64,000 nt of DNA from Marsupella aquatica (lineage: Eukaryota; Plantae; Marchantiophyta), in NCBI GenBank assembly GCA_973895155.1, contig OZ316894.1:26962340-27026339 (forward strand), read 5' to 3'. The position numbers and the translations under genes are program-made. Under the pieces are notes generated by a model. It did not search any database. It saw only the letters and a list, made by a program, of their open reading frames with translations, and was not told where the DNA came from. Positions 30,449 to 56,652 of the stretch are shown here, piece after piece; within the stretch, counting starts at the first letter, position 1; the number at the start of each line of letters is the position of its first letter.

Positions 30449-31686
30449 CTATTGCAAATCATCAACCTCATCATATTCCATTTGCCCAGGTTCATCATAT
30501 GTCTCTCTCAATGTTAAGGGGATGTAGTCAGTCCCTGCCCGAGTTGGAAGTACAGTCTCATGACTAGGATGCTCGAATGCAGCATGGTCATCCAAACTGA
30601 ACTCTACTTTACTTCCATCCATCCGCCTGTTCCGTGCTTGGCTATGGCATACCACCCTCCAGCCATGTGACTCCGCCACATCTGCAAAGAAAGCCTGTTC
30701 AACTTGGCTAGGGAAAACAAAAGGCTCAGACCATTCTGGTACTCTGGACCTAAAATTGGCCAACAAGAACCCATCATGATCACGCTTCATGGTGGCCCTT
30801 GGTCTCTGCCACTCTGATTTCACCCATGATCCCTTCATCAATATCACTGGGACACTTGTGTTACCATAATTCAACACCCAAATGTCGGTCAACTCCCCCA
30901 CGTAACCCATCTTCATCCACCCCCTCTATTCTTCAGAGGTTCTCTGCTCAAACACAGAAATCAAACCACAATCATATGATACACAATGGTCACCCTGCTC
31001 ATCCCTCACTCGATAATGATTTCCATAAGCTCTCATCCATTTGTAGGTCAGAATAGACAATCGTGGTGGCACAGATAGAAGATACAAATCCTTCTCCATA
31101 TCTGGGTGATGTCTACTATGCTCTCGAATTGTCACCCGAATCCACTGCTCGAACTGTGGGAAGGGATCCTGCTGCCCAGAGTGTGCAGCTTTTTGCATAT
31201 CATATTCCCTGCATTATGAGGTACAGGCATAGTTAGGTCTAAACAACACATGACAACCTAAGATCACCCTTGGAACAGACAAGAAGCATCACAACAAAGG
31301 CAAGTCAATTCAATCACTCACCTCCACCATGGTTGCATAGGCTCTGTGTTTGCCAGCACATATGAATGAGCCTTGTCTCGAATCGCAACAGGCAGCTGAA
31401 CAGCACGTCCCACACCTTCAACAACCTCGCCACTCACTCCATCATCTTCACCAGATTTCCAAACTCTTGTCATAGCTTCACCAGACCCAGCCATGTACTC
31501 TGTTAGGAATCCCAACGTCTCATCCTTAATGTACCCCAATGCCATGGAAGCCTCTGGCCTGTAGTATGTTCTCACATGACCTTTCAACAACTTCATGTAT
31601 CGCTCCATAGGGTACATCCATCTGGTACTGACTGGCCCATACTGCCCTAGCTCTTCTACCACATGGATTAGGAGATGAGTCATAAC
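30449..31686 (-). pseudogene. CACTA-2 transposase, C-terminal part only (DUF4218/DUF4216)
   Basis: MTHLLIHVVEELGQYGPVSTRWMYPMERYMKLLK, RPEASMALGY, AYGNHYRV, EPFVFPSQVEQAFF. Cut off at 31686 by the LTR; the upstream part is not seen. Confidence 0.92.
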
Positions 31687-34600: not shown

Positions 34601-35997
34601 CCGTTGGGACAAACCAGTTACCAGGGGTGGTAATTGCCGAAGGACAAGCCGCGCCACCTGCACCAGTGCCGGAAGTAAGTGGGAAGGGGAAGGGACCAGC
34701 TGCCGAGCCACCAACGAAGAAGAAGCGGAAACCTTCAGGGTCAAGGAGTAATACGACTTCACAGGCCGTGGTGATCAAGGAGGTAGACCCAGCACCGACC
34801 CCAGACAGGGTCACGGCTAAGGATCCAACTACCCTAGGGGAAGGGGAGGCCGAAGCCGAGGGAGTGGCCGAAGCCGAAGCCGTGGGAGTGGCTGAGGCCG
34901 AAGCCGTGGGTATTGCCGAGGCCGGTGTTGAGGCTGAAGTCGAAGGTGGACCCAGTCAGGCCGAGGGAGAGTTGACTCGGTCAAGGGCAGGTAATCTGTC
35001 AGTAGGCGGGCCAACGGCAGTGGCTGAGGAGGAAGTGTTGGGGGCGTCCATTGAGGATCCACCACCGGTGTCGTGACGGTGCAATGGCGCCGTTCCTTTT
35101 AGGGAGGGCGGACGTGGAGGGAGGAGGCGTGAGTGGGCAGGGCGGGCGCGGATCTCCACGTTTAGGATTAGGATTAGAACCAGGAGCGGCCCTGACACTT
35201 AGCTTAGTGGGATTGCGGTTCCACTGGTAGGAGCAACACTTGTGCTCCTGCCTTACTGTACATAGGTAGATTCGGGCAAGTAGATTACTGTCAGGTAGAT
35301 TAGGCTTACGATGCAAAGAATGGCGGATCCACTACCAGGATAAGTACCTGGGCAGCGGGGAGCTCAGGGCCTCTTCTTTAGCAAGTTTTTAGTTTGCACC
35401 AGCCGGGCTGGGATCAAGTAGTACGAGAAGCTCTCGGTTAGTCATACAGTGACCCTTGTGTATATTCATGTTTCCTCATGCCTAAGAGCTGAATAGAGTT
35501 GGCCTCACGGCTTAGTTCGCAGAACTTGTGTATGAGATGTACTGTTTGTATGGCAAGTGCATGGTATGACTCAGTCAGAATGAGTCATTTTGCTATTTGT
35601 GTGTCGCATTAACTTGTGTGAAGAGTGCCCACATCAACAGAAGGAAGGAAAGTAAGCAGGGGAGTGAGAGTTGGATGTGTCGAGCTGAGAGAGGTCTTAG
35701 CGGCTTAACCAAGCCTATTGGGGATCATTCCGACGACGGAATCCAAACATACCTAACAAGACGGAGGGGAAGACAGGGGAAGACAGGGGAAGGCCTATAT
35801 TAGGCCGGCTACGTATCTCATGACCCGATGAAGGATCTGTCCAGTATATGTGTGTAAAATGTTAATAGTAGTAGTAGAAGGTTAGCAGCGTCCCATGCCG
35901 CTAAGCCGCGGAAACGGCCTCGCCAAGCACGAAACCTGCGGGAATCGGCTTGAGCTGGGGGGTTTCTTGGGTTTAGGGAGCCATGGGACGCACCACA
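31687..35997 (+). repeat. 5' LTR (4311 bp), with a 348-bp in-frame internal deletion relative to the 3' LTR
   Basis: TGTGATGCCTAGAC...GGGACGCACCACA, near-identical to 41973-46632. The segment equivalent to 43344-43691 is missing at ~33057. Confidence 0.96.
31802..35076 (+). pseudogene. LTR-encoded ORF (5' LTR copy)
   Basis: Starts MEPGPRPEV. Stops at 31943 and 32342, a frameshift at ~32665, then an open 812-aa frame to 35076. Confidence 0.85.
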
Positions 35998-36001
35998 TTT
36001 T

Positions 36002-36019
36002 TGGCGCTAGATGGAGGGG
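36002..36019 (+). other. Primer binding site, tRNA-Asn-like
   Basis: TGGCGCTAGATGGAGGGG lies 4 nt after the 5' LTR. It is complementary with one mismatch to the plant tRNA-Asn 3' end as I recall it (...CCCCTCCTTCTAGCG-CCA). Confidence 0.7.
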
Positions 36020-36066
36020 GCATTTCTTAAGCCGTGAGATATGAAGTTAGAACGGAAGCGTAGGTA

Positions 36067-38679
36067 ATGACTGACCTTACGCCGAGGGAAGAAAGAGTGA
36101 TTCAACGGGAGAGAGCTCGACTGCAGCAGCTCGCCGGGTGGCATGATACACAGCGACTGAGAGGGGCAGAAAGAGCTGGTAGCTCCGAAACTGGAAGTGG
36201 CGTCGAAGAAGACATACCAGAAGAAGAGTCGGTAAGGAGAAGTGAGTCTACAACCGACATGGGGGAACCAGAGGCACGGCCAGACGAGAGGTCAGGGACC
36301 AGATTGAGCCAGCGGTCGCGCATACATTACAAGGCATTTCATGGGAGAGGAGATGAGGATCCGGACGAATGGTTGGATGATTTCGAGGGAACCGCTGCAG
36401 CAAATGGAGAATCGGCCATCAAGATGCAGATTCTTCCCGGCCTGTTCAAGGGTGAGGCTAGGCCTTGGTACAGAGCATTAGATGTGGAAGATCAAGCCAT
36501 CTGGGATATCTTCAAAACACTCTTTGTTAAGGAGTTTCGACCCATTGGAACTTCAGAACTAGCAGTGCTGAAGTTGGGACAACTTCGGTTCAAGGAGAAC
36601 AAATCCTTCAGAAAGTTCTTGCAACGCTTTCAGAAACTGGTAAGACGTACAAAGACCAATGCATCTGAAGGTATGCAACTTCAATGGTTGGTGAATGCTT
36701 TGCCACAGAAGATGAGTTTTGCAATTAGGAAGGAGAACCCGGAGACTTTAGCCGAAGCAATTAAGGATATTCAATTATACATTAATGCAGATATCACAAG
36801 CCGGAAGAAACAGCTTAAGTCTGAGAGTTCCTCATCAGAGGAGGGATCACCCCATAAGAAAAAAGATAAGAAGAAGAAACATTCCAAGAAGTCTAGAAGT
36901 GATAAGTCAAGCTCGGATAGTGGGAGTAGCAAGAGTGAGTCATCTTCTAGTTCTGAAGAAGAAAAAACTAGGAAAAGGAAGGGCAGAAGGAGAGGGAAGA
37001 CGAAAGTCAAGATGGAGGCTAAGCCACCAGATAACATCGTAGCCCTTACCGAGCAACTTAAGGCTATCATTGCAGAGGTAAAACCAAAGAAGAAGGTAGT
37101 ACAGGAGGATAGCTCTGTATGGTGTGCCTTATGTTATAAAACCGGACACCATAAAGATGCTTGTCCTAAGCTTAATACTAATCATGTTCGGCATGTGGCC
37201 GAGATCAGACCATGTCAGGGAGAAGTAGAGTACTTTTTAGGAGATGCCGCTGATAGTGTTTTCGGCATCAGTGAGATTGGAGCACGAGACCTATCCAACA
37301 GACCTGCATCTCTGTGGTCAGGGTTAAGGAACAATCCAGGAGAGATGTATCCTCGGATTATTCAGAACCCGTCAGTACCTCCTAGGCCGAATGTGCAAAG
37401 ATTTGCGGCGTGCTATAATTGTGGTCAACCTGGCCATTTTGCTAGAGAATGCCCGAATGCACGCAAATAGGGTGATGGACAACCAGCTCAGCTATGTATG
37501 GGATGCCGACAGGAAGGTCATATGCTAGGGCAATGTCCTACTTGGTTGGCAGGCCTGGCCGCAAATCATAAGCTTTTGCCGATCAAGATCTTACCGCCAG
37601 GTACTACCCCCGGAGGAGTTCAAATCAACCACATCGAACTAGGATGGCAAGAGGATGCCGAGGCAGAGTTCGTACCATCTGATGATGAGGCCGAAGCCCT
37701 ATCAACCTTCTCAGAGGAGGATTTAGATCATGATTGCTATCGGGTCTCTACTCGATCTACCAGAAGGAAGGAAAGGTGGGATGGGCTGGCCAAAAATAAA
37801 GGGAAGGTTACGGAGGAAAGGATCGACTCTTCGTCAACATCAACAGAAGGAGAAGGGAGGGCTCCGGCAATACAGGTAAGCCATGAGCCCACCAGTGAAA
37901 CCAATCCTTCACAAGATAGCGACTTCAATCGAGATCATCCTAAGTTGTTCTACCCCTCTGTTACGGCTAGTGTTAAGGAACAACTAAGAGAATTAGAAAC
38001 CCTGGAGAATACCGAAGCCATTGCCAAAGATGTAAAACGAGCAAAAGCATTGTTTGCTTCGGAAGACCCAACAGCTGTGGAGACTAGCGTGGCAAAACTG
38101 GCCGAATCCAAGGAAACACCACCAGAGGAGAAGCCGATTGTTCCCTATGACCTGGCTAAAGATGTACTAGAATCTAGAGTCTCGGCAACAGTAGGTCAAC
38201 TATTGAAAAATAGCCCGTACTTCCGGAAGCAATTAAGGAAGGCTATTCTCGGCAAGCCGAGATTACCCAAGGTAGCAACCAGATCCGACGTACTAATGAT
38301 AGAAGAAGATCAAGGAGCCCCAGCATTACCATTAATGATTCAAGGAGAATTATTACTACAGGTACCCATCGATGGAGGATCAGGGGTATGTATTATGATT
38401 GATTCAACAGCAAAAGGGTGGGGTCTAACACCGGAGATGACTGGAAGAGTGTTGAACATGGCCAATGGATATCAGGTCATTCCTACGGGAGTGTTAACCG
38501 GCATCAAGACAGAGATAGGAGGTATCTTCTTTAGCATTAACTATGTAGTAATGAAGCCGGTAAACCCTACGTCATTCCGACTATTGATTGGTAGGCCATG
38601 GCTGTACCTAGCCGAGGTAATAGAAGATTGGGGTAAAAAGCAGTTCACTTTCGGGACCCCCTCTATCACAGTATCCTAG
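36067..38679 (+). pseudogene. gag: gag with three CCHC knuckles, plus aspartic protease
   Basis: FHGRGDEDPDEWLDDF...FKGEARPWY capsid motif. Knuckles CALCYKTGHHKDAC, CYNCGQPGHFAREC and CMGCRQEGHMLGQC. Protease IDGGSG and LLIGRPWL. In-frame TAG at 37468 and 38677. Confidence 0.92.
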
Positions 38680-38963
38680 GACACTAAGGATGACCGTAGG
38701 AAAAGCATAAGGGAAGTAGATGGGTACGACAGTGGACTGGAGTCAGCCGATGAAGTACGTTGGTTAGAATGCCTCACTAACCTAACCGAAGAAGGTGTCT
38801 TTGGACCAGAGGTACCCCCCAGCGGATTATGGCAAGAACCAATGGAAGGTGACTTGGAAGAAGAAGACGAAGAGGTCGAGGACTGCTTTACAATAGAATC
38901 CACCTTTTTAGCTGCAATTCCGGAGGAAGTAAAGGATGTAGACCAATTGGATGAAACGGCTAA

Positions 38964-41900
38964 GTGGGGAGCAGTAGCAGGGACAATGAATTTTCTGCAG
39001 GCGTTGTGGTAGAGCCGGCAGGGTTCACAACGCCATCGATCATCGGCAAGGAACTAAATACCAAGGGATCGGCATACAAGCCGATTACAAGGGCAGAACA
39101 AATTGAGGCCCTATTAGAAGCCGAGAGAGCACAGCGGCCTAACTCTCAGGAGCAAGAGGTGGATGAGATGGACAGACACGATCTAGAGCCAAGGCAGGAA
39201 GGGGAGCCGACCACTAATTCAAAACCGAATAGACCGGTAAGGGGACAATCTATGGACACCAAGGAAGGGACCGACTCGGCTAGTCCAGCCGAAATCCCAG
39301 TTTATGGAGGTATGAGATTAGAGAGACTGGAAGCCGAACTGGACCCGAATTTGAAGAAGCAGATTAATATGATCCAAGCACGGCAATATCGGAAGCTCGA
39401 CTTAGGAGAGGGAAGAGAACTGAACTTAGGGAGAAACCTAGCACCTGAGCTCGAGAAAGAGATTAGTGACTTATTGATTGAATTTCAGGATGTGTTTGCA
39501 TGGAGTCACCAAGATCTAAAGGGAGTAGATCCAACACTAGGGGAACATCGAATTGATCTCATGTTAGGAGCCAAATCATTCCGACAACCAATTCGAAGGA
39601 TGAACCCGAAGTATTCCCTGCTGGTCAAAACAGAAATCGACAAACTAGTGGAAGCTGGATTCATCACTCCAGTCCTGCATTCAGACTGGGTGTCTCCAAT
39701 TGTGATAGTTCCCAAGAAAGCTGGACCCGATGGTAAAACCAAGATCCGGGTTTGTCAGGATTACAGGAAGCTGAATGAAGCAACATTAAAAGACCATTTT
39801 CCTTTACCGTTTACTGATATGGTACTAGACATGGTAGCCAGTCATGAACTATATTCATTCATGGATGGATACTCTGGTTATAACCAAATCAGGATTCGGC
39901 AGGAAGACCAAATCAAGACGGCCTTCATCACGGAATGGGGGATCTATGTCTTCAATCGTATGCCGTTTGGACTCTGCAACGCACCAGCTATGTTCCAACG
40001 ATTAATGGTGAACATTTTTCATGATTACTTGAGAAAGTTCATGGAAATCTTCATTGATGACTTTGCAGTATTCGGGAAGGCATCGAAACATGCTAAATAC
40101 CTCAGGAAAACCTTCATAAGATGTAGAGAGGTGGGTCTCAAGTTACACCCAGATAAATGTTTTTTTGCAGTAACCGAGGGGGTGCTACTAGGTCACAAGG
40201 TATCAAGGAAGGGCATTGAGATTGACAAAGATAAGCTAGCAGTATGGCTAGATATCATGCAACCTAAGAACATAAAGGATGTAAGATCCTTCTTGGGATG
40301 CATTGGTTACTGTCGCCGGTTCATCAAGGATTTTGCCAAGCTAGCTTTACCATTAACCAATATGCTCAAGGCAGGAGCAGACTTCGAACCCACACCCGAA
40401 CGAGTCACAGCGGTGGTAGAATTGAAGCAGATGTTAGTAGAGGCCCCAGTCATGATAGCACCGGACTGGAACAAAGATTTTCATGTTTTTGTAGATGTCT
40501 CGGGCTTCTGTATTGGCTCAGTACTAAGTCAGTTGGATGAGAAAGGAAGGGACCATCCCATATACTTCGCAAGCCGTCAGCTTGCCGATGCCGAACGGAA
40601 CTACTCTACCACGGAAAGAGAAGCATTAGGAGTCATTTATTCTTGTAAAAAGTTTAGGCATTATTTACTAGGGTACAAGGTAATCTTTCATACTGATCAT
40701 GAAAGTTTGAAGTACCTAGTCAATAAGCCGGACCTTACAGGCAGAGTAGCAAGATGGATTTTGCTATTACAGGAGTTTGACTATGAGCTGAGGATCAAGC
40801 CGGGAATCAACGGCACGATTCAAAGATGTTTGGAAAAGAGAGAGGTAAAACGAGTCCTACGGGCCATGCATGGAGAGGAGGCCGGAGGACATTTTGCCCC
40901 AGTAACCACGTCTAAGAAGATATTAAATGCCGGTTACTGGTGGCCCACCTTGCACAAAGATGTCTATCAGTTTATCAAACAATGCGATCCTTGTCAATGA
41001 GCGGGAGGACCAAGGGCGTCCACCAGGCATCCACTGCACCCTATTCTACCTCTGGCACCATTCGAGAAGTGGGGTATTGATTACATTGGACCTCTGAAAC
41101 CACTGACCCACCCTCGACGGAACAAGTACATAATCCCGGCTACGGATTATGCAACTAAATGGGTAGAGGCCAGACCAACAACGAAGGATGATGCAATTAC
41201 TACGGCTAGATTCATGTATGAGCAGATCTTCACCAGGTATGGAGCACCCCTAGAATTAGTTAGTGATAGAGGAACCCATTTTTTGAATGATATAATTAGT
41301 CGTTTAAATGAGCAGTATTTAGTTAAACATAGGCCTACTACTCCCTACCATCCAAAGGCAAACGGGTTGACAGAACGAGCAAACGGAATTATAGGAAAGA
41401 TATTGAACAAGACAGTAGCTCAGAACAAACTCGATTGGGATGATAAATTGTTTGCTGCTGTTTTTGCTTACAATCTTGCCTATAAATCCACTACCGGTCA
41501 TACACCCTTCTTCTTAACCTTTGTACAAGAAGCCCTGGTACCCATGCAACTTGAGATACCGACATTTCAAGTTACAATTGAGGAAAGAGCCTCAGCGGAG
41601 GAGAGCCTAAAGGAGCGAGAATATAGGTTAGAAGCTTTAGAGGAAGTGAGAATGATTTCAGCCGAGAGAGTAGAATATAGACAGAATATCATGAAGCAGC
41701 AGTATGATAAAAGGTTAAAAGTAGTTAGTATTCATACCAGTGATCTTGTGCTACTTTATGGCAGTAGGTATAGTAGGTTTCCAGGAAAGCTTTACACTCG
41801 CTGGTTAGGACCCTTTAGAGTAACCATGATGTTCCCCAATGGCTCCGTACAATTGGCCAACATTACGGGAGAGGTATATCCAGTTCGCATCCATTATGAC

Positions 41901-41984
41901 CGCCTCAAGAAATACTATATGGACGAAGATGAAGTTGTTCGCGAGGACACTTCACAATTAAGTGGGGAGCTATGTGATGCCTAG
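38964..41984 (+). pseudogene. pol: pol: reverse transcriptase, RNase H, integrase
   Basis: WVSPIVIVPKK, DYRKLN, DGYSGYNQI, MPFGLCNAP, FIDDF. RNase H DVSG..IGSVLSQ and YSTTEREALG. Integrase H..H/CDPC, LVSDRGTHF, YHPKANGLTER, WLGPF. TGA at 40998 and an apparent deletion after IKPG (~40805). Confidence 0.96.
41960..41972 (+). other. Polypurine tract
   Basis: AAGTGGGGAGCTA directly precedes the 3' LTR TG and lies inside the last integrase codons. Confidence 0.75.
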
Positions 41985-44900
41985 ACAGGAATCACTCGGC
42001 CGGTTAAGTGGGTAAAGCAGGGAGGCACCCTAGGAACACCTTAGTATAGTGACAAAACAAGGAAAATATAAACAATTAGGGGCAACCATGGAACCCGGGC
42101 CGAGGCCGGAGGTAAGGCTAAGGGTGAAAACCCGATTAGGGTTAGGGCGCGTTAAGCGTCGGCGGCTAGGAAGGATCAACGGGAAGAAGGACCGGCAAAG
42201 GAGAGGGGTAAGGAGCGCTTGCAGGAGATAGTGGCTCATTGGCGAGCACGAACTAGGCAGACGACTACGGGAGGCCAACTACTGTCAGCTGCTTAGGCAA
42301 GCACTCGGGGAGAGAGTAGATACCGACGATCAACCTAAGGAGGGTATGAGCAACGTCAATCAAGCGGCACATTTCTGGGGATGCCTGTTCGAACGGGCAA
42401 CTGAGTACATCAAGACTTACGAGGACGAGGAATCAGAAAGGGCAGCTCGAGAACGGCAGGAGCTCGCTCGATTGTGGGAGCTGCAGAAGACGGCTTTCTT
42501 AGGAGGCGAACTCATCAAGGACGAGTTCCAGTGGACGCCTACTTCCAATCAACTCGATGATCTTCTGTTTTGCAAAGACAGCGTCGTCGGCATCCGAGAG
42601 GCCATCAAGAACTGCAACGACATACACTAGGAATTAAAGGGTAGCACGGAAAGGTGGACCCAGGCAACGGTGCTAGGAGAAACCTCCACGGCAGCAAAGA
42701 TGAAGAGGAAGGGAGCCGTCAACGATGAAGCCACCCCGGCAAAAAGAACGAGGTCGGCGGCACCAAAGAAGCCAGCCGAGCAGCAGAGCAGGAGGCAGGG
42801 AGAAGCCGAAGAGGAGGAGGTCGATCCCATCAAGGCCATTCCAACCAGGGATGACACCTGGAAGGGCTGGACGGCAACCCTACCGGTGGAGGTGCAACTA
42901 CATTTTGCACGGGAGGAGGATGCATGCTTTACGGCCATGCAGACCAAGAATACCAAGGCTTCATGGCCGGATCCGGCTTGGAGGCCTTTGTAAGATTACC
43001 ATGGCTGAAGCCGGAGGTACCGGAGTCAGACCTATTAGAATTCGTGGGGTCATGGGAACCCGAGACCAATTGCACGAGGATATATGGGAAGGATTTCTAT
43101 CTTACTCCCAAGGTAATTGCCGAAGTGTTTGGCCTGCCGATAGGCAATAAGACCAAAGTTGATACCAGGAAGACCTTGCCTAACAAGGAGTTCCGGTCGT
43201 TCCCCGGGCCATCAACGAAGAATGGCTTCTTCCGGAACACCTGCACCAACCCGCACATAGGAGAGATGATCGACTTCTTGCGGGTGACCATGCATTGTAA
43301 CTTGCCGAGGGCAGAGATCGGCAAGGCACAGGTCTATCTGGCAGAAAGGCCAGACCCAAGCCGGGACTACAACGGGTACCTCCTCAACCAATTGAAGAAG
43401 ATCTTAAAGGAGGAGCAGTAGGTAATCGGCATGGGGAGCGTGTCGCGGCTTGGCTATCACATGCCACTGTTGTGCCGGTATGCCAGAGGTCAGACTTTTG
43501 CCCCGGTACTTCCCCTACAGGTAAGGGCACCCGAGGAAGCTCCAACGCCGAGGCCGTTGGCTGAGAAGCCTCAACCACCTGTTAGTCCTACGATCGAGCA
43601 GGTGTTTAGGCCCAGGAAGGAGGACTTGCCGATGCAGCAACCAGGCATGCAGAGTCTGCTGAAACTACTGGAGAAAGAAAAAAAATCGACATCGGCAACA
43701 ACAACGGCAACGGCAACAATGCAGGACACTACTACAGAGGTAGGCCTACACCGGCTCACAAGAGAAAACCCCTTTGCTGGAGACAAGGAGAGAATCAGGC
43801 CGGAATCCAAGCCAGGTGTTCGAATGTACGTGGGAACCTCAAGCTCCGAATCTGAGGTAGAATTGCCTGAAGCTCCTACCGACGAAGAGGAGAGGGAGAA
43901 GCCGGACGTCCAAGAGGTAGAGGAGGCAGTGGAGGACTGCAGCCATGATAATTCCGGCTATGGGTCGGACCATCACGTTCCAGGAGTAAGGACCTGTGGC
44001 CGGTTTGTCCCCACACTTCCAAGGGTAGTGCGAGGGGACCCCAACCAGCAGAGTAGCCCTGAGTCTCCCCCACCAGGATGTTGCTCCCCCGAGCTTCGAC
44101 GGCATAAAACAGACGGTGCAGGAATTTCAGGAGCGAATCAAGCAGGAGGAGGAGGCCGCCCTGGCTAAGGAAAAGGATTTACCAGGAGGAGATTGGCCGG
44201 AGGACATCAGGCGGCTAGCCGAAAAAGGAAGCAAACCTCTAGCCACGATTGAAGAGATCCGCAGGACGGCTTGGGAGCAGAGGCCACGATGGGCGATGCC
44301 GATCACTTCTACTTACTCCACCTACGCTAAGAATAGAGCCATGGAGTATGGTGAGATGTGTGGGGAACTTGCGCTCGGCATCTTTGGAGAGGAGTTGGAG
44401 GTAGGACCCTTTTTCCATAGGGAGCAGTTGGAGAAGCACCAATTAGAAGAAGCGGTGGCTTTAGAGAGAAGCAAGAAGGACGAGGTCATTCGGCGGCTTA
44501 GGAGGATGGAAGCCGAGATTGAAGATCTAAGGGCGGCCAAGAAAGCCCAAGATGAACTGCGGATTAAACGACATGAGCTGAACATCATGCAGGGGCAGTT
44601 GGACACCGCGCAGGCTGATAATCAGAATATCAAGGATAAACTGACTCAGACGCAGGAAGAGTTGGCCGACACGATCAAAGAGAGGGAGAAGTGGAAGCAA
44701 GAGCTGAAGAATACAGAGGAGGCCCACATAACAGCCAACAGCCGGGCCATGGCGGAGACCCAAAGAAAGGAATGGGCGTTGAAAGGGGAGCTCGAGAAAA
44801 TCCGCGGAGCCCTTGAGCAGAAGGAGGCCGAGTTAGGGAAATCCTATCAAGGGATTATGGCGCTGCAGCAGGAGCTTGCGTCCCTGACGGCCAGCTTCAA

Positions 44901-46632
44901 GGCCGACCTAAGGGAGAAGGACGAGATGCTCGAACAGACTTACGCCAAGATGAACCAGATGGAGTCTGTCATCATTGCAGAGCTCGACAAGGAGCTAAGA
45001 GCAACCCGGGAGGAGAGGGCTACCTTGAAGAAGGAATTGGAGGAAGCCCACAGGGAGCAGGAGGAGGCCAAAAACGAGCTGGAGGGGGCACGTAAGGACC
45101 TGGATGAAACCCAAGAGGAGTTGGAGGAAATCACGAGGAAGATGGAGAACCTACAGCGGCGGGCCGACAACCAAACAGAGCGGCTGAAGAAACAAGCCGC
45201 AGTATTTAAATGCTTAGCTGCAGCAGGTCCATCTCCCGTTGGGACAAACCAGTTACCAGGGGTGGTAATTGCCGAAGGACAAGCCGCGCCACCTGCACCA
45301 GTGCCGGGAGTAAGTGGGAAGGGGAAGGGACCAGCTGCCGAGCCACCAACGAAGAAGAAGCGGAAACCTTCAGGGTCAAGGAGTAATACGACTTCACAGG
45401 CCGTGGTGATCAAGGAGGTAGACCCAGCACCGACCCCAGACAGGGTCACGGCTAAGGATCCAACTACCCTAGGGGAAGGGGAGGCCGAAGCCAAGGGAGT
45501 GGCTGAAGCCGAAGCCGTGGGAGTGGCTGAGGCCGAAGCCGTGGGTATTGCCGAGGCCGGTGTCGAGGCTGAAGCCAAAGGTGGACCCAGTCAGGCCGAG
45601 GGAGAGTTGACTCGGTCAAGGGCAGGTAATCTGTCAGTAGGCGGGCCAACGGTAGTGGCTGAGGAGGAAGTGTTGGGGGCGTCCATTGAGGATCCACCAC
45701 CGGTGTCGTGACGGTGCAAGGGCGCCGTTCCTTTTAGGGAGGGCGGACGTGGAGGGAGGAGACGTGAGTGGGCAGGGCGGGCGCGGATCTCCACGTTTAG
45801 GATTAGGATTAGAACCAGGAGCGGCCCTGACACTTAGCTTAGTGGGATTGCGGTTCCACTGGTAGGAGCAACACTTGTGCTCCTGCCTTACTGTACATAG
45901 GTAGATTCGGGCAAGTAGATTACTGTCAGGTAGATTAGGCTTACGATGCAAAGAATGGCGGATCCACTACCAGGATAAGTACCTGGGCAGCGGGGAGCTC
46001 AGGGCCTCTTCTTTAGCAAGTTTTTAGTTTGCACCAGCCGGGCTGGGATCAAGTAGTACGAGAAGCTCTCGGTTAGTCATACAGTGACCCTTGTGTATAT
46101 TCATGTTTCCTCATGCCTAAGAGCTGAATAGAGTTGGCCTCACGGCTTAGTTCGCAGAACTTGTGTATGAGATGTACTGTTTGTATGGCAAGTGCATGGT
46201 ATGACTCAGTCAGAATGAGTCATTTTGCTATTTGTGTGTCGCATTAACTTGTGTGAAGAGTGCCCACATCAACAGAAGGAAGGAAAGTAAGCAGGGGAGT
46301 GAGAGTTGGATGTGTCAAGCTGAGAGAGGTCTTAGCGGCTTAACCAAGCCTATTGGGGATCATTCCGGCGGCGGAATCCAAACATACCTAACAAGACGGA
46401 GGGGAAGATAGGGGAAGACAGGGGAAGGCCTATATTAGGCCGGCTACGTATCTCATGACCCGATGAAGGATCTGTCCAGTATATGTGTGTAAAATGTTAA
46501 TAGTAGTAGTAGAAGGTTAGCAGCGTCCCATGCCGCTAAGCCGCGGAAACGGCCTCGCCAAGCACGAAACCTGCGGGAATCGGCTTGAGCTGGGGGGTTT
46601 CTTGGGTTTAGGGAGCCATGGGACGCACCACA
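41973..46632 (+). repeat. 3' LTR (4660 bp)
   Basis: TGTGATGCCTAGAC...GGGACGCACCACA, a direct repeat of the 5' LTR. Confidence 0.96.
42088..45711 (+). pseudogene. LTR-encoded ORF (3' LTR copy)
   Basis: Same protein. Stops at 42229, 42628 and 43419; frameshifts at ~42951 and ~44076. Confidence 0.85.
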
Positions 46633-46759
46633 CAACTCCTCCGTTGTCCTCACATGTACTGCCTCTGCACGTACATCCATGACCATATCAGAGTCCAATC
46701 ATGTATAGTCATAGACACAGGTGCCAGGTGCGAGACCGGTGTGAGATGTCCTCATCTTA

Positions 46760-47329
46760 CTACCACATCAAATACGGATACCAATCCTGTTGTCGATGCC
46801 ACTCAGCCCTGAGGTACTCAGGCATGTACATTAAGTCATCAAGGTCTAAACCCTGCTCATGCCATCGTGGTCTTCGATCCGTGCCTACAAGCAGTGGCAG
46901 CAGTGCCCTCCATGGTGCACATGTTGCTACCAAGTCCCTCCACTGGGTACTAATTAGTCTATATTTGCAGATATCTTGTGCGCCAGACACCACAAGAACC
47001 CTCGGCCAGACATGTGTAAGAACTATATCATCTGCCAAATCAGGCAACAAGGAACCACCTACAGCATCGTGCTTGTCTAACTCATCTGCTGAAAAGTAAA
47101 TGTCCTCTTCCGACTGTGCATCCTCATTCACCACAGCATTCACAACACATCCAAGGTCTGCAGGCATTATCTCGGATGGAGCTACACTCTGTCTGGTTAC
47201 CAATCCACACAAGTAAGCCCAAGCAGTAGCCATGCACGATGCAACCCGTAGGAGGACCCTACATAGGGCCTGACGGTCTGGAAGAGGCAGCATACCCACC
47301 AAAGTCTTCAGCCAAACAGAGCCCAGCAA
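46760..47329 (-). CDS. F-box-like cargo ORF in CACTA-2, probably decayed
   Basis: LLPDLADDIVLTHVWPRV......ICKYRLISTQWRDLV fits the F-box pattern LP.LPDDI...IL.R.....R.VCK.WR.L. Confidence 0.65.
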   Translation of the reverse strand: MLGSVWLKTLVGMLPLPDRQALCRVLLRVASCMATAWAYLCGLVTRQSVAPSEIMPADLGCVVNAVVNEDAQSEEDIYFSADELDKHDAVGGSLLPDLADDIVLTHVWPRVLVVSGAQDICKYRLISTQWRDLVATCAPWRALLPLLVGTDRRPRWHEQGLDLDDLMYMPEYLRAEWHRQQDWYPYLMW

Positions 47330-47469
47330 GTAGATTCACAGTCACACCCCACGCAGCAGGAAACAACAATCACTTCAACTGCGACCAACCATGACAAGAT
47401 GAGTTAGTTCAAGGATCACATTTATTACAAAATTGTGTTTTATACAAAAATATGAGGGACTCCTACTCC

Positions 47470-48225
47470 TCACTCTCTCCCACCTTTGCTAAGCATACAT
47501 CTCCGCTGAATCTTGGAGGGCCAGGCCTCAAAAATATCAAAGTCCCAAGCATTCTGTCGCTTCCCTCTAGCTACTGATTCCAGAAGCCAATCAGGGGAAA
47601 GCACCCAAAGATTGTTGTTCATGACAAAATCACGCACTGTTGTCTTAAAGAATTTTCTGCATATTTTCATGTATGACAGACCTACAACATGAGTGGAGGT
47701 TTCTGTTAGACTCTCCTCCACTGTCCCACCTAGCTCAACAACTATAGACTTGTACAGTCTGCACTTAGTCTCCCCAATTCCTTCTTCTGCAAATACCACA
47801 CTGAACCCCTTCATAATGGTATTTCTCTCCTTGCCATGCTCATTCAATATAGCATCTGCACGCATAGGATGGTGTCCTATGTTGACAACAGGTCCATATT
47901 GGACAGAAGCAAAGTTGGGTTTCTCTGCCGCTGCTTCATAGGCTTCCTTTTCAGCCAAAGCCTCTGCAGTGGCCTCCTCACTCTCCCACAACTCATATTG
48001 CTCAGTACTCTGTACACACCTATGTTTAACAGAATCGGTCAGCCAAGAGACTTCAACTACTTTTAGACCTTGGTTGGTAATGGCAGAAACAATGAAGGAC
48101 CATGACCACTTGTTCATCACATCCAGCCATGTCCCCGCAACAACATGTGTAGTCTGTGGAGTGATGTCCTTGACTTCAGTCCCATGGAACTCTGAGAATC
48201 GTTTTTGTACGATTGGCCAACTCAC
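47470..48225 (-). CDS. Tandem BRCT protein, similar to the plant DNA polymerase lambda N-terminal BRCT; start uncertain
   Basis: Two units: ITPQTTHVVA...VVEVSWLTDSV and MKGFSVVFAEEGI...IVVELGGTVEESLTETSTHVVG...VLSPDWLLESVARGKR. Confidence 0.8.
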   Translation of the reverse strand: MSWPIVQKRFSEFHGTEVKDITPQTTHVVAGTWLDVMNKWSWSFIVSAITNQGLKVVEVSWLTDSVKHRCVQSTEQYELWESEEATAEALAEKEAYEAAAEKPNFASVQYGPVVNIGHHPMRADAILNEHGKERNTIMKGFSVVFAEEGIGETKCRLYKSIVVELGGTVEESLTETSTHVVGLSYMKICRKFFKTTVRDFVMNNNLWVLSPDWLLESVARGKRQNAWDFDIFEAWPSKIQRRCMLSKGGRE

Positions 48226-48911
48226 TTGGGTGAACCCTAAACCCTAAACCCTAAGCTTTGATTCCAGCCAACAGAGGCGGGTGGTCAACCTTTGTACGTT
48301 TCCTAGAGGCCATGTACACACGGGCCACCTAATCACTGCAGACCGGAAGATAATGCGTTCACCTGATAATCGGAGGGCCCTTAAAATGCTGCGTTTATAA
48401 CTTGGTCCAGTCCAGTCGTCTGGTGAGTCTCTGCTCCGATTCCAAATGGGAGAAATATTGGGACAAACGTACTAGACACCTGCAAGCATGCACCTCATAG
48501 TTTGAATATGTGCCTTCACAATATTGAAGGTGACAAGTGCAATTGTTTTGTGATGCCACATACAGATGTTGTAAATGGGCAGACATTCAATGAGAATACA
48601 AAATGTTGGTACACTTTAAGGGAATTCTCGCAAATTAAATAGCCTTGTAACTTATATGCTCATAATGAGAAGTCCTGATTTAATTTAAGCATTGTCATGT
48701 AAGTCGTGATCAAAATGATTGCAGAGTTAAAAAAGTTCCTAGAAGGCTTAAGGGCAGTTTTTGAAGGCATGTACCCAGGAACAAGTAATGAACTTAGGGT
48801 ACTTGTTGCCTAAGCATCCTCTCCTACAGAGGTCCTTCTTCTCAAAATTGGAATGTCTGCAATCTCCAAGGTATCCACATCAGGTGCACTATGCATGTAT
48901 ATTATTCAGGT

Positions 48912-49592
48912 TCAAAGCCAAGAAATGTGATCTCTCATGGGAGTGTGCAAAGTAGGATCTATGGCATGGCGATGACAATAGAAGATCCATCGATCAACAC
49001 CATGTGCAGAGTGATCATAGATGTGTCTGTCACAAGCATAGCCTTCTGCTTGACGCTCCTTCAAACAATGAAAGTGCCACATGGTGGGACACCTAACACA
49101 GTGGACTATGTCCACCCAGAAATCTTCATCGTGCTGACCACATGCCTTGCACTTATGAAGTGGGCAAGCTGTGGCAAGATCGGGAAAACATGAAAAACAA
49201 AAGAACCTCACACAATATCTGTCAGGGCATTTCCTAACAAGTGGTGGAGCATCAACAGAGCCCTCATAAGACCCCAACTTCCCACACTGTGCACACTTAG
49301 CCTGCTTCTCCAAACAATCAGTGCACATCCAGCCTCCCTGGTGTGCTGACGGGAGGCCCACCCCTGGACAGTTGTTTTCTGCAGCAAGGTCAGACTCCGG
49401 GTTGAGGTGGAAATGCCTCATGCAAGGGCCCTCACATATGGCTAAGCCACCACCATCGTCACAAATGGCACAACAATGAGCTGCCTTCTGGAAAATCTGA
49501 CTTGCGGAGAAGTTACTACCATCTGGCCCAACTACACCTGTGTTGCTCACCTCTGTCCCCCGCTTCTTGGCTCGGATTTTAGGGCGTGCCAT
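48912..49592 (-). CDS. Stand-alone EDM2/NSD-type composite PHD finger protein (226 aa)
   Basis: CAICDDGG.L..CEGPCMRHFH, CTDC....KCAQCGKLGS, CPLHKC..C, CVRCP..WH..CL, FYCHRHAIDPTLHTPMRDH follow the EDM2 PHD cluster in order. Intact ORF with a basic N-terminus and a splice-acceptor-like site just before the ATG. Confidence 0.88.
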   Translation of the reverse strand: MARPKIRAKKRGTEVSNTGVVGPDGSNFSASQIFQKAAHCCAICDDGGGLAICEGPCMRHFHLNPESDLAAENNCPGVGLPSAHQGGWMCTDCLEKQAKCAQCGKLGSYEGSVDAPPLVRKCPDRYCVRFFCFSCFPDLATACPLHKCKACGQHDEDFWVDIVHCVRCPTMWHFHCLKERQAEGYACDRHIYDHSAHGVDRWIFYCHRHAIDPTLHTPMRDHISWL

Positions 49593-50261
49593 GCCTACGC
49601 ATGAGACAGATAGTACAATTTAGCAGAGTGCACGGACAATACAATTTAGTGCAGTGTACAAAAAGTACAGTGTAGCATATAGACTAGAGTGGCAATTGCT
49701 ACTGCAATGAAATGTTCACACACATGTGCAGAGTAGACATACTTTTTGGTTTGTTGAGCCCACACTAAAAACTGATCCCCTCGTACAATAGCTCCACCTA
49801 CACCTCAATTTTGTGGCTATGATTCACCAAAGGAGATCTGCAACAAGATTTAATGCATTTGAATCACATATAACAGTCGTGACATGTAAAACAGGCATTT
49901 TTTGAACAGGATTGGTATCAAGCACTGTGATCAGGGTTGTAATTTATACATCCTAAATAGGCTATGATAGTGAATGAGACAAATAAGTTAGGCAGAAATC
50001 ACTTTTTCCAGGTTATCACATGGCCCATTAATTCCAGTCTTTGAAAGGAGACTTTTAAGTGAGCTTGCTAGCCTCTTAAATTAGGATATTGTACTTAGTG
50101 CAGCCATAATAGGATAAGTTATGTACTGTTGACCCTAAACCCTGGACCCAAAATTGGTCATAATTCAAAATCTTAAGTAAATATCCTCTCTGTTCAAGTC
50201 AAAGTGTTAAGTTATAGGTCAATGGTCTCTGGTTTGTGCATGCGGTGTGACAAGTGGTCCT

Positions 50262-50711
50262 CTAGAGCGTGTGATCCAAACATGTGTAGACACCAAAGTG
50301 ACCGGTGGTGGGGTCTGGGAGGGCAGGACAAGTGACATCGCCAGGCACACTGCAGGATGGCGAGTGGTTCCAGATGATACATTGTGCTCTGTGAAAAAAC
50401 CGACATCCAAGAGAACGGTCATCCAACTCTAGGCCAGAAGCCCTATAGGCAGGACAGTCATATTGGCAACTGTGCACACACCCTTGGGCCCTAATTTGTG
50501 GCGGGTCATGTATGAGAGACAGAAATACCAAGGATGTTGGGAAGGGTGGAGAAGCAGGTACAGGCCGGCTGTAGTTGTTCCTGGCAACAACTGGGTACTC
50601 AAAGTACCATGCAGACTGGGCTGGAAGGATCCCAAGTCTGACATACTCAAGGCGCAACATCTCTGCCTTGCGTGCAAGCCGCACATGTTCAGCGTTGCGG
50701 GTCCTCACCAT
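50262..50711 (-). CDS. Small Cys/His-rich hypothetical cargo protein
   Basis: 149-aa ATG-started ORF on the same strand as neighbouring cargo genes. CVHSCQYDC, CRFFHRAQC, HSPSC...C...H....C..H. Confidence 0.45.
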   Translation of the reverse strand: MVRTRNAEHVRLARKAEMLRLEYVRLGILPAQSAWYFEYPVVARNNYSRPVPASPPFPTSLVFLSLIHDPPQIRAQGCVHSCQYDCPAYRASGLELDDRSLGCRFFHRAQCIIWNHSPSCSVPGDVTCPALPDPTTGHFGVYTCLDHTL

Positions 50712-53700
50712 AAGTGTTGCTTTTGTGGAGATGTCGTGTGTTCACGTCCTCTGATAAGCACCTTCGATCAGCAAGGTGAGCAGGAGCTGTACTTGCCTCA
50801 CCAACAGCAACCAACCTTAAATTATCAGTTCCCACTCACTGTGTCATTCCATTGGTTCCAGCTAGGGGTCACAGTGTAAACATAGCATGAAACACTCCTA
50901 ATCAACTTGCTTACAAACTACAATATCCAGAAAGAGTGAAAGTCTCACCCTCCAGTGAGCAGCAGAGAGGTAGTTCACTAGATGTGTTGATGTGCAGTTA
51001 AACCTCCACTATTGCTTACTTCTGGTGTATGCTGCTCAGAAGAAGACATATTAGTAGCAGCAAATTGCAAATAATGGCCATAAGCAAACCGTGAGAGTTT
51101 GCAGAATGCTACGACAAATCCATCACAGCAGTGCTCCACAGGAATGAAACCAAGCAAAATTTGGTGACCTCGGCCAATGACAAGGCCAATGTAGTGAACA
51201 ATCCTTGACCGATCAGGATATGGATTGGAATTACAATTAGTCAGCTCTTCTTCTTTGTTTTCTAACTCTGGGGGAAATGAGCATGACCAGGGAATTCTTT
51301 GAGAAATAGAAGTGCACAGGGAAAATGAAATTGGCTCATTCAGCTGCGCAAGACCGGCCATTGCAGCAAACTTGGACAGTTGTTCCGCAATACATAAAAT
51401 ACCCTGACTTACATGCAATCGATACAATCTGCTTCTGTTGGCTGTCCTATAGCTCACGGTAGTGCCGTTGGGATAGGGTAAGTGAATATTGCCATAGCTG
51501 AAGCACATTGAGCTTGCAGCAAGAAGTGAAGGAGCATGGCCAAAAGCAGAAAAGACAGACAGGTTTTACAAGAAGAAACTAACAACCGCCAATCTGCTCA
51601 AATCCGCTGCATAGATCAAACCCTCCAAACTACACAGCCCTCCTTTGAAAACAATCCAATGTGCTTTGGCTGGTGGATGACAAGGACTGGGAGAAGAGGA
51701 AACGTCTACACAATCAATCCCAATGACGGGACATAGAGACCAGGCACAGAGAGGATTTGTGCTTAGACAAAAACCACAAATTGTAGCATGGGCGCCATAG
51801 CATTGGGCGGCAATGGGAAGAATTACATCAAATGAGTGGACAGAGAATGAACAGTCCGGTTATAGGCAAACAGCGACTGATGCCCTGATGCAATGAAACA
51901 CGCATTGACATAGCGGAGGGACATAAAAACTACATAAGCCAACTTACTGACCTTTTAAGGCCCACAATTTCAAGGGGAGGGACAAAGACAGCAATAACAG
52001 ACGCAGAGACAAAGTTGTACTCTGTCAATTGAGTAGGCAAGTGGGTGGGTGAAGATCAACAACCAATGTAGCAGCGCAACCAGAGTAGCAACAAAGAAGC
52101 AGGTTGCCCTCAGTCTCCTATTTTTCAAGCAGCTCGTGCTCGCGGTCAATCTCCTATTCTGCAAGCAGCTCACGCTCGTCCCTCTTGTTCTGCAAGCAGG
52201 TCATTCTTGTCGGCGATGGTGCAAGCTGTCCTCCTAAACTCTGACACTCAAAATGAAAAGACCAAGCACCTCCAATCTGTTTGATCCCTTCCGCAAGCAG
52301 CCGAGCGGCAGACGATAATGTAGGGATCAAGAACCAAGTGCCAGGCGGACATTGCACAAAATGAGGACCGGGGGCAGAGACAAAATCTACCGAAATCTAC
52401 CGAAATCTACTTCTTGGGGTCCAGCCCACGGATGGACATCATGCAAGGTGGTCAAAAATGGTAAGTGCAATTGTTGGAGAGCTGTACTCGCGATTACTAA
52501 CGGTGCATCCACAAAATGCGTCATCAAGTTGTCAGTGCGGCCACAACAATTTTGACAGTCTCAGGATCACAGGTCCACAAACAAGTTGCAAATGAAGACA
52601 CACAACGTCCAGGAGGGAAAGTCCGCAACACTAACCCTTTGTAAAGCCCCCGAGCTTACCTTCTAGCTGCCGACGCAAAGAGAAAACCTACTCAGACACT
52701 AAAGCAACCCTAAACTCAAAGTCTCACCTTAGCGCAACAACTCCTGGATTGGATTCAGCTAGCTCAGGCTCAATGAAGCATGTCGCCTCGGGCTCTCCGG
52801 ATCCTCCCAAGGCAGCAAACAAGTTAGGGTCCACGGTCCTTGTACCTTCACCGCACCGTTGTGTCCTTCCCAATGCCTCCTCTGTAGTTGCGTCTTGTCT
52901 GCAACTCTACAGCTCCCCGTGTTGCTCTGCCGCACTTAGTTATATTCCAACGCCCGATCGTGACCAAAAAGAGTTTTCTCCTGCTGGACAGCACTAGGCA
53001 TTTGTTCAATCTCTTGATCACGCGTAAGCAGCTACAGGTATGAATCACTCAGTTGGCAGCTCAATACGCTTACAGCAAGAGGGCGCAATAGGTAGAAGCT
53101 CGCGCTACCTAGACCAGCACAAGGACAAAGCATTAACATTGAAACTGTACCATGGAGCTGGAGAAAACCACAGAGTAATTGAAGCCTAACAATACCCTTC
53201 TTAGCTCCCGACTCCAAACTCTCGGCTCCCAGTTTGCAAGAACAAGCACTATGAAAATATGGATTCCCACATTGACTGTGTCCGCAGAACAGATGCAACC
53301 CGCATGCAACTTCACCAGCTCAACGGCAGCTTGACAACTGAAGGACCTCCCAATGAGCCTCACGGCCTCCCGATGCTCGTTATGGGTGCAGCAAAAGGGT
53401 CTATACCACAACTGTGACCGAGATTGTCACCCAAAACCTTGAAGAAACCCCAACCTCCGACTCCTCAAACTCCGACAAGCTCCTCACGAACGTTGCAGCA
53501 GCCACAACCTTCTTCGCCCTACCAGCCAAAAACTAAATGTCCCTAAAGGAGATCGAGCAGGAATGCAGGTCTATGAGTAGACTGCAAGCGCAAGGTTAGA
53601 TCACTGCAACTGCCTGAACACTGCTCCTCGAGAGCATAAACAAGCACATAACGCGAGGGAAGTTCACTCCGCAATGGTCGCAAAAAGTGGGCAACACTGA

Positions 53701-55172
53701 AAGGAAAACCCTACGTAAAACCCCGAACACTCCACCCCTCACGTTCTAAGTTCAATGACAATGGCGAAAACTCCAAAGAGACTCCCAAAGTGAAGTTTAG
53801 TGCCTGAAACCGAATTAGGGGAAGCCACTCAGCCTTACCGTTTGAGTGAGCCGTTGAGTGTCACCCAAAGTGGGACAAAGCTACAAAGTGTTACTGCATG
53901 GCCAACTTAGGCAATGAATGGTCATATTTGCACATACATGGTCGGTAGTGACATTTTATTGCACGCCGTAATCAGGATTAAGGTTGCCCAACATTATATC
54001 CGGTCCTAAAATGCAATATTCCCGGTGCAAGAATGTGACCTAGCTCTAATGTATGAAAAAGGACCGGTACAAATCTACCTTTGTGCATCTTGACCTTTTA
54101 TAGATGGATTTAGTAATGGCCAAGAATATCTTGACCATCCCTCCATGGTCCAACCTCCATGAACCCCACTTCATTAAACCCAAAACCTTTTTGGTCACAA
54201 ATAAGGACATTTAATGAGTTATGCCCCTTGCTATCACCCTCTTTATAGATTTATTTTTTTGTTTGAAATTTTACATTTATTCCGCGTGAACCCCACGGAT
54301 GGGGGAACCAGTAGGCCAAATGGCATCATAAAACCTCAACACCCAAAGGAGGCAATAACAAAGAGTTACTCAACCAGGGTCATCAGATCAGGCAAAGATT
54401 GCGAAGCCGTTCTTCTAGTGGTCCATGCAACAAGTAACAACTAGGGAATAAGCACTAGAAGGCGCAGTAGGTCAGCATAGTGTAAGTGTAAAGTGTCAAA
54501 GCATTGTCTAGTACTAAATTAATCCACCTGATTAGTAAGAAGGGGGTGTATACTGTAATGGGAAAAAGAAAAAAAAACCAAGGCATGAGCAAGGGCCACC
54601 AAGAGTGGTGCAGCTATAAGCTATAGGGATTGAACACAATGCGGGGGGGCAGTGGCACTATGTATGAGGAAATCACGGGAGTATCGGTGTCAAATGAGTC
54701 GACAAAACTCCCAGATAGCCACACAGTATAAATCAATCTCACAGAAGGCTGCCATCAATGGAGGAAACAATTTGACACGACCCACATCTGAGAGTGTGAA
54801 TTCGCTCGATCTCCAGCAGTTCTTTGGCACTCGATAGACGTCGGTGCTTTCGGCTCAAAGATGAAGGAGAATTACCCCTCCTCAACATAGAGTGAACATT
54901 ACCCATGATGTGCTAGACTATTCACCCTTCACAAAGTAGCAAGGTTACTTCTCATAGTCTTTTAGTGAACCATAAAACTCTCATAGTCTTTTCTAGTCTT
55001 CAACAAAACCGGTGCAATGGGTGCGAGTTGTTTTAAGTATGGAAAAAGGACTTAGTGGGCATAGTCCTATAAGGTATGGTCTAAATTGCCCCGGTTTCTA
55101 CTAGTGGGTTTATGCACACCCTTAAGCAACATTACAGTAGAAAAACTATAATAGCACCTCAGAGAAATGTAC

Positions 55173-55546
55173 CGTGAGGTTGGGGAACCCTGGAATAGCG
55201 GAGTCCTGGATTCAGTTTCCAATTGGTCCCAATCATCTTCGTCTAGTTCCATGACAGGAGGGTCACCCTCAGGTACATGAGGTCCAAAGTGGATGTCCAC
55301 AAGGTGCGCAAAAGCATCCTCTTCAACAATAGGTGCATCCATATCATCCTCTACATCTTCATCAAAATCGTCATCATGTGCATCATGGTACTCATTCACA
55401 TCCTCGTCCACATCCTCATCCTCATGCACATGATCACTCTCAACATCTTCGTCGTCAGAAAAAGATAATGTGGCTCGCATGTGGAACGAACGGGCTGACT
55501 CCGTCATCATCGATGGATGAGGTGTAGGTGTTATATTTGGACCATC
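55173..55546 (-). CDS. CACTA-1 transposase acidic exon
   Basis: Acceptor TTGCATAG|GAT at 55547. D/E-rich, ends ESRTPLFQGSPTSR at donor GTAC (55172), in frame with the exon starting at 26172. Confidence 0.85.
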
Positions 55547-56505: not shown

Positions 56506-56652
56506 CTGTTTCACATGTGAACAAGAGAACTTCAGAAATCAGGGAAAAAACCATTCCAACTAAACACTCAAGAAACTCAAGAAACCCAAACATGTTATAT
56601 TCAAAAATGGACTTAATGAATTGAATAGTGTCAATAAAGGTTTATGAATTAC

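Follow-up and report, generated by a model that had tools for sequence, protein, structure and literature searches.

The DNA examined in the present study is a stretch of 64,000 nucleotides from Marsupella aquatica (Marchantiophyta; assembly GCA_973895155.1, contig OZ316894.1, positions 26,962,340 to 27,026,339 of the forward strand). We refer to this whole stretch as the window and count positions from its first base. It contains a CACTA (En/Spm) DNA transposon, CACTA-2. Between the terminal inverted repeats (TIRs) of this element lie four compact minus-strand genes, which encode a Cys/His protein (gene 1; 50262..50711; 149 amino acids), a stand-alone EDM2-type PHD cluster (gene 2; 48912..49592; 226 amino acids), a tandem BRCT protein (gene 3; 47470..48313), and a likely F-box protein (gene 4; 46760..47293; 177 amino acids). 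Genes 1 and 2 are open in the window copy and gene 3 is broken. A preliminary description of the locus had reported four such frames, and their coordinates hold: the stop-to-stop frames span 50262-50741, 48912-49619, 47470-48243, and 46760-47335, all within the TIRs. When these 3952 bases were resampled with dinucleotides preserved, frames of at least 145 amino acids arose 0.07 times on average, and four of them occurred in 0 of 2000 resamplings. The same description placed the cassette upstream of a transposase and in the same orientation. The orientation was confirmed, as the four frames share the strand of the DUF4218, DUF4216, and weak Transposase_24 frames of the element; however, the supposed transposase is a 3' remnant (31686-30449), and a 14.9-kb long terminal repeat (LTR) retrotransposon separates it from the cassette. 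Sequence comparisons indicate that the cassette consists of real, multi-copy, protein-conserved accessory genes of a CACTA element.

Short whole relatives were recovered for all four proteins at 35-81% identity (5 for the PHD protein, 1 for BRCT, 2 for gene 1, and 12 for F-box). Relatives of the PHD, BRCT, and gene 1 proteins were searched among about 5.8 billion clusters at 0.55-1.75 times the query length, and those of the F-box protein in a library of cluster representatives. Across the genes, the relatives have common starts (MARP/MARC, MVRTR, MAP/MAS, and MLS/MLP). Viral contigs scanned with the PHD and BRCT alignments yielded no relative. We also simulated neutral evolution to the observed identity using substitutions only (2000 runs per gene). 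The frame was still open in 6 of 2000 runs for PHD at 53% identity, 3 of 2000 for BRCT at 61%, 84 of 2000 for gene 1, and 55 of 2000 for the F-box core. Since databases list only open frames, the retention of cysteines in the PHD protein provides a fairer test than the open frame.

The cassette also occurs outside the window. Uniqueness to this copy had been named beforehand as an outcome that would count against it; instead, words of the cassette stretch were found in eight sequencing runs of five organisms (runs are denoted X below), and contigs tile the cassette in six runs from three organisms. All 30 bins of the cassette are covered by contigs in X1, X2, X4, X5, and X7. Over the F-box and BRCT genes, X1 yields contigs 410 and 421 bases long that show one difference at a depth of approximately 1770, and contigs of the 5' region stand at 420-450. 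This contrast fits a recent amplification together with several 5' types; read depth was not taken as copy number. Conservation of gene order across copies was borne out for BRCT and F-box, which are bridged by X7 record 16. The order is the same in a diverged subfamily (X7 record 18, approximately 80% alike), in which joints at a depth of 186.1 step from BRCT to the end of F-box; we infer from their equal depth that these joints belong to one contig. The placement of gene 1, PHD, and BRCT in that order relies on tiling only, and none of the contigs reaches across the whole set of four. X6 gives deep but diverged matches over the PHD gene and the F-box core, and their loose ends, read by eye, are mostly in frame. 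BRCT bins lack cover in X6 and X8, which carries no evidential weight. Small indels were listed for 12 of 101 and 12 of 27 cases. Those inside the genes net to +3, +3, and +5, the last at the BRCT break, whereas the ones that shift the frame fell either between genes or ahead of the ATG of F-box.

The PHD frame matches NSD-type PHD models of Pfam at E values of 1e-5 and 4e-4, below the Pfam cut-off, and the protein aligns with the PHD region of NSD2/NSD3 (E 5e-11) in a match that ends before its C-terminal motif. The five relatives, from 90 candidates, measure 217-245 amino acids and are 81, 75, 53, 39, and 38% identical to it. The window protein ends after DHISWL, and the same stop is present in four of the five relatives. 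Against these relatives, 22, 22, 20, 20, and 18 of the 22 cysteines are kept, versus 82-33% of the other residues; cysteine retention is higher in all five pairs (Fisher p 0.03 to 6e-7). None of the 22 cysteines was lost versus P0001 or P0002, and in simulated neutral sequences the number retained never exceeded 21 of 22 at 75% identity or 18 at 53% (2000 runs each).

A scan of metagenomes for relatives of the PHD protein returned nine loci, which comprised grass-like EDM2 or EDM2-like proteins and one distant PHD protein, with none of the cassette clade. Aligned with L001-L003, the window protein shows the EDM2-type tail motif CxxHxI...TPxRDHI. It keeps 23 of the 28 Cys/His columns common to L001 and L002, versus 36 of 163 other columns. 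L002, which we take to be EDM2 from its architecture and not from a database label, runs to 1305 amino acids; the N-terminal and methyltransferase-like C-terminal regions of EDM2 are absent from the 226-amino-acid protein. In a tree of 10 rows, from which five of the nine metagenome loci were omitted because they were partial, redundant, or distant, the six PHD-only proteins group in a clade of their own, separate from the four rows of grass-like EDM2 or EDM2-like proteins (100/100). Identity between this clade and the grass-like rows is 26-32%, and the clade has a common deletion of approximately 21 amino acids and retains the EDM2-type tail. The grass-like contigs L001 (541-1660), L003, L004, L005, and L007 encode short EDM2-like proteins that hold the PHD cluster without the long C-terminal part; they parallel gene 2 but lie outside the cassette clade.

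Gene 3 matches Pfam BRCT (PF00533) in two stretches (E 8e-15) separated by a linker of approximately 50 amino acids. The repeats resemble known ones weakly, the first BRCA1/LIG4 and the second TdT/Rtt107. An origin of the BRCT pair from Pol lambda found no support: Pol lambda is absent among the 18, 26, and 10 matches listed for the BRCT protein, in a comparison that included no plant Pol lambda sequence. One relative was recovered among 495 candidates, P0006 (61% identity; 294 amino acids), which has a 26-codon leader. In the window copy, reading from the ATG at 48313 ends after 20 codons at a stop within a telomere-like patch of TTTAGGG repeats (minus strand, ~48236..48254). Loose ends of contigs lie at 48255 in X1, X2, X4, and X7, and in X5 and X7 the main contigs carry five extra bases at the break, which give a 26-codon leader like that of P0006. 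The BRCT leader is thus uninterrupted in other copies.

The window protein of gene 4 alone gives an F-box E value of 0.08, below the cut-off, and its identity therefore comes from its family, in which 11 of 13 members match PF00646 and nine match PF12937 at E ≤0.5, the best F-box-like match being 1e-5. The 12 relatives measure 100-190 amino acids and are 35-56% identical; weak matches to FBXL5, FBXW11, and FBXO2 were also obtained. The motif LLPxLPDD...W is followed by a short C-terminal tail of only approximately 50 amino acids, without a known substrate-binding or other domain, and a structural model (predicted local distance difference test [pLDDT] 67, predicted template modelling score [pTM] 0.37) had no Foldseek match. 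The spacer between BRCT and F-box (47330-47467) has a high-depth match in the more distant X6, where the BRCT bins are not matched, and is possibly a conserved cis element.

Gene 1 has two relatives among eight candidates, at 55 and 53% identity over 97% of its length and with the same MVRTR start. Nine of its 15 Cys/His positions are invariant in the three sequences. It had no sequence match in Pfam, the Atlas, or PDB, and its AlphaFold model (pLDDT 44) was unusable. Gene 1 likely encodes a zinc-binding module. Regarding the modules named in the preliminary description, the tandem BRCT and the EDM2-type PHD held, the latter below the Pfam threshold, and the F-box held through its family; however, the BRCT gene is not whole in this copy. 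The view that the cassette did not arise from random capture of gene fragments is supported by the occurrence of the cassette in other copies, the whole but diverged relatives, the separate PHD clade, and the kept cysteines. The cassette proteins are not near-identical host fragments because the PHD protein is only approximately 30% identical to grass EDM2 with its cysteines kept.

The window consists of nested mobile DNA of plant type, and its transposase domains, EDM2-type PHD, and TTTAGGG repeats suggest a land plant as host. The left TIR of CACTA-2 (26263..26292), its 3' end relative to the genes, begins with CACTAG after a flank that ends in GGTT. The right TIR (55077..55106), its 5' end, terminates in CTAGTG before a flank that begins with GGTT. 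The pair match at 20 of their first 25 bases and have the CACTA/G-type start. Four bases, GGTT, are common to both flanks (26259-26262 and 55107-55110), or GTT with an offset of one base. The usual target-site duplication of CACTA elements is 3 bases; a clean one was not recovered for this one insertion, for which there was no empty site for comparison. Duplications of 2-5 bases occur in the CMCT clade at large (PMC12730594). CACTA-2 is nested in a predicted intron of the transposase of another, outer CACTA; this nesting, together with the cover and variant contigs in several runs, marks it as mobile and multi-copy. The frames on either side of it form one protein, with an acidic N-terminal exon at 55546-55067, Transposase_21 at 25508-24494, and DUF4218 at 23426-23094. 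Because these outer flanks are continuous, the cassette and the transposase remnant belong to one insertion. The ends of the outer CACTA were looked for and not found within the 64-kb window. The outer CACTA also holds a SET-domain frame (55690-56538, minus strand; Pfam SET E 6e-5, above the cut-off), which lies between a Transpos_assoc-like exon at 57243-56560 and the transposase exon at 55546-55067 and has GT and AG sites fittingly placed.

The transposase remnant of CACTA-2 is of the TnpD type and retains part of DUF4218 together with DUF4216 (30449..31686, minus strand; Pfam E 6e-18 and 6e-6), which are 37 and 28% identical to those of the neighbouring outer CACTA; the Transposase_21 frame of the latter has no counterpart in CACTA-2. 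Likely TnpA-like exons follow on the same strand (27089..29566), with a weak Transposase_24 match (E 0.014) for 28904-29566 and no family for the remaining frames. The nested LTR retrotransposon (31687..46632, plus strand; LTRs at 31687-35997 and 41973-46632) occupies the place from which the 5' portion of the transposase has been lost, and its removal in silico regained no transposase frame. Its flanks are unequal (ATAAC and CAACT), which suggests a deletion or recombination. Contigs from X1 and X2 run on beyond 46633 into different sequence. The window copy of CACTA-2 is dead, with the catalytic part of its transposase deleted and the BRCT start cut off. Upstream of gene 1, 4.3 kb (50742..55076) hold no recognised gene, only short frames and a 195-amino-acid frame without a convincing family. 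This region is likely promoter or leader plus inserted or subfamily-specific DNA; deletions span it in other copies, and no Rfam family was detected in 46600-55200. The 4.3-4.7-kb LTRs of the nested element and of 8935-13596 hold long coding frames (up to 835 amino acids, coiled-coil). The LTR at 8935-13596 is a third, solo-like one in the opposite orientation, 91% identical.

We lean toward the explanation that the window holds a damaged member of a multi-copy plant CACTA (En/Spm) family, the four conserved accessory genes of which probably encode non-enzymatic adaptors or decoys that would aid the expression of the element and the survival of its own cuts. Each gene would be translated separately, likely through alternative splicing or separate starts, as in En/Spm. 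Separate translation is suggested by the start Met and, for PHD, the stop that relatives have in common; AG sites resembling acceptors are found just upstream of the ATGs, 2 bases ahead in the case of PHD. A location of the cassette within the first transposase intron was also considered and is unsupported, since the sequence upstream of gene 1 yielded no first exon resembling Transpos_assoc. In Arabidopsis, EDM2 PHD fingers bind H3K9me2, and EDM2 promotes full-length transcripts across intronic heterochromatin with ASI1 and AIPP1 (PMC7472560, PMC10241880). We predict that the PHD-only protein is an EDM2 stripped to its PHD cluster, which would occupy or redirect the EDM2-ASI1-AIPP1 pathway as a mimic or decoy; the redirected pathway would favour full-length RNA of a 14-kb heterochromatic element. 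At the breaks left by excision and insertion, the two BRCT repeats would recruit proteins of repair or of the checkpoint, and the Cys/His protein would act as a zinc-binding module. Binding of SKP1 by the F-box protein would make it an SCF adaptor or a decoy, the latter possible because there is little room for a substrate domain. A broader proposal, held by us only tentatively, is that a land-plant CACTA lineage evolved a four-protein host-manipulation cassette, which can be likened to viral accessory genes, would combine EDM2 hijack, steering of repair by BRCT, SKP1 capture by a minimal F-box, and a new zinc fold, and would pass between related elements as a unit.

Several observations weigh against the adaptor or decoy explanation. 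The main gap is that the relatives P0001-P0027 lack informative names and genomic context and may lie outside transposons; part of the protein conservation may reflect selection in the host. No intact element with the cassette plus a whole transposase was seen among the copies. Among close copies, the listed coding variants comprised 16 synonymous and 26 non-synonymous changes with no stop (approximately 4% expected per change). Against an expected synonymous share of 0.236, this gives p 0.025 and an omega of approximately 0.5 (up to 0.65), which is modest selection. The variants from the listing covering X5 to X8 alone (10 synonymous and 21 non-synonymous) gave p 0.18. These counts come from the 40 places with the best support out of 789, and likewise 40 out of 393, are not independent, and are enriched for changes private to the dead window copy. 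Larger lesions exist as well. In X2 and in the main X5 and X7 contigs, the F-box gene has lost 43 bases near its 5' end, which shifts the frame; an in-frame Met remains 19 codons ahead of the F-box motif, similar to the start of several relatives. A 774-base skip removes most of gene 1 in X2 and X4, and a 123-base skip takes out part of the F-box core in X1. Among the X6 loose ends, the consensus of one within the PHD frame, read by eye, runs into a stop.

The PHD protein itself also calls for caution. All six clade members lack the acidic residues that precede PHD cysteine 1, and the position of AIRE D297, which binds H3K4 (PMC2261226), is His or Gln in the clade, while the D312 position stays acidic. 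Because of these losses, canonical histone-tail reading is not assured; they represent a caution and not a refutation, since full-length L002 also lacks Asp at the D297 position. The tree that separates this clade from grass-like EDM2 rows contained no EDM2 of the host lineage. The suggestion of a functional kit for silencing, repair, and protein turnover is supported as far as maintained genes go; its functional side is conjecture, in view of the weak selection among close copies, the broken copy, the lost acidic residues, the missing fold for gene 1, and the lack of signs that the BRCT pair came from Pol lambda.

The genes may alternatively be old, once useful accessory genes under relaxed selection, in which today's copies are non-autonomous, depend on a foreign transposase for their movement, and carry a cargo in decay. 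We regard this as rather unlikely, although the omega of approximately 0.5-0.65 among listed close variants, the 43-base deletion in a main subfamily with larger deletions in others, and a window copy without catalytic domain and BRCT start all fit it. Against it, no stop appears among the 42 listed coding variants, a weak argument given the low expectation per change, BRCT is whole in the main X5 and X7 contigs, and indels within genes are in frame. Moreover, a raised dN/dS is reported to be usual for accessory proteins of transposable elements (PMC13547354). Capture in the manner of Pack-CACTA elements, a known process (PMC13317346), would bring in whole or processed small host genes, the conservation of which would be that of the host genes, with no benefit at the protein level and at most camouflage from small interfering RNA. 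Capture is favoured by the short EDM2-like PHD proteins of grass-like L001 and L003, in which the long C-terminal part is absent, and by the missing genomic context of the relatives. We nevertheless consider it improbable: four unrelated, intron-free, Met-to-stop genes lie in one orientation, no PHD cysteine was lost versus P0001 and P0002, diverged, high-depth X6 matches cover the F-box core and PHD and have loose ends that appear in frame by eye, and no relative above 81% identity was found among the clusters searched at 0.55-1.75 times the query length. Near-identical host fragments without frame conservation were not found; the best relatives are 55-81% identical, in a comparison that did not include the host genome, where a close paralogue is possible.

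It is very doubtful that splicing joins the four frames into a single multi-domain protein, or that they serve as alternative exons spliced to transposase exon 1. The acceptor-like AG sites before the ATGs would suit such an arrangement, as would the neighbouring CACTA with its SET frame between predicted transposase exons; however, the relatives, searched for genes 1 to 3 at 0.55-1.75 times the query length, share a Met start and the DHISWL stop, and no transposase first exon was found upstream of the cassette.

To our knowledge, few transposon-encoded factors that counter silencing are known, and the tested plant case is VANC. If the proposed origin of gene 2 is true, a transposon-borne, PHD-only relative of EDM2 would represent an element re-using a heterochromatin reader of its host. 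Seen alongside the SET frame in the neighbouring CACTA, such a gene suggests that chromatin genes are a common cargo of CACTA elements in this plant group. Furthermore, the cassette offers small proteins that are directly testable for histone peptide binding, SKP1 binding, and polyadenylation at intronic heterochromatin.

Accessory cassettes are already known in the superfamily. Giant Plavaka elements (EnSpm/CACTA superfamily) of the red alga Bostrychia carry the three-gene cassette PAG1-PAG3 (10.1101/2025.02.11.637652). CACTA-2 resembles them in its superfamily, as a large multi-gene element, in a fixed accessory cassette with chromatin-related domains and one unknown gene, and in that most copies are degenerate. 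It differs in its plant-type TnpD (DUF4218/DUF4216) and in a cargo of PHD, BRCT, and F-box adaptors, in place of the Plavaka enzymes (N6-methylase/SET and 2OG oxygenase). EnSpm elements of Chondrus have 4-5 frames (PMC6431247). Fungal EnSpm and Plavaka elements with TET/JBP (PMC12730594) are alike in carrying an extra gene thought to counter silencing, which is one enzymatic eraser there and four non-enzymatic modules in CACTA-2. The VANC anti-silencing proteins of VANDAL elements (PMC5735166, PMC10398659) are likewise transposon-encoded accessory proteins that act on host silencing. However, they belong to Mutator-like elements, bind DNA sequence-specifically, and have a tested function; a sequence link to the CACTA-2 proteins was neither found nor sought. 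Arabidopsis EDM2 (PMC7472560, PMC10241880) has the same PHD cluster and C-terminal motif as gene 2, whereas gene 2 is transposon-borne, has 226 amino acids with PHD only, is approximately 30% identical, bears the deletion of ~21 amino acids, and has no acidic run before PHD1. Pack-CACTA elements (PMC13317346) also hold non-transposase coding DNA between CACTA ends, while the CACTA-2 cargo is whole, intron-free, far diverged from known host genes, and protein-conserved. An F-box isoform of the platyfish Zisupton (PMC12062965) is another F-box on a DNA transposon, of a different superfamily and fused there, in contrast to the separate frame here. No transposon-borne EDM2 appeared in the titles or opening lines of abstracts of the open papers listed on CACTA and EDM2, and BRCT is unmentioned in the open papers retrieved on EnSpm accessory genes. 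We did not find the combination of EDM2-type PHD, BRCT, and F-box in the open literature; subscription journals, Repbase, and supplements were not covered, and an earlier description is possible.

Other features of the window lie outside CACTA-2. At 60809-61480, a 223-amino-acid minus-strand frame that faintly resembles N6/N4 DNA methylase (E 0.057) adjoins a 428-amino-acid minus-strand frame without family at 62206-63492; the region 60809-63492 is possibly a further cargo-bearing element. At 16454-18406 (plus strand), a 650-amino-acid frame consists of seven coiled-coil repeats of 189 bases (63 amino acids). Related arrays of sub-terminal-like repeats at 921-2075 and 14148-15480 flank a 12-kb block with a 623-amino-acid frame and the solo LTR, and may be the ends of another element.

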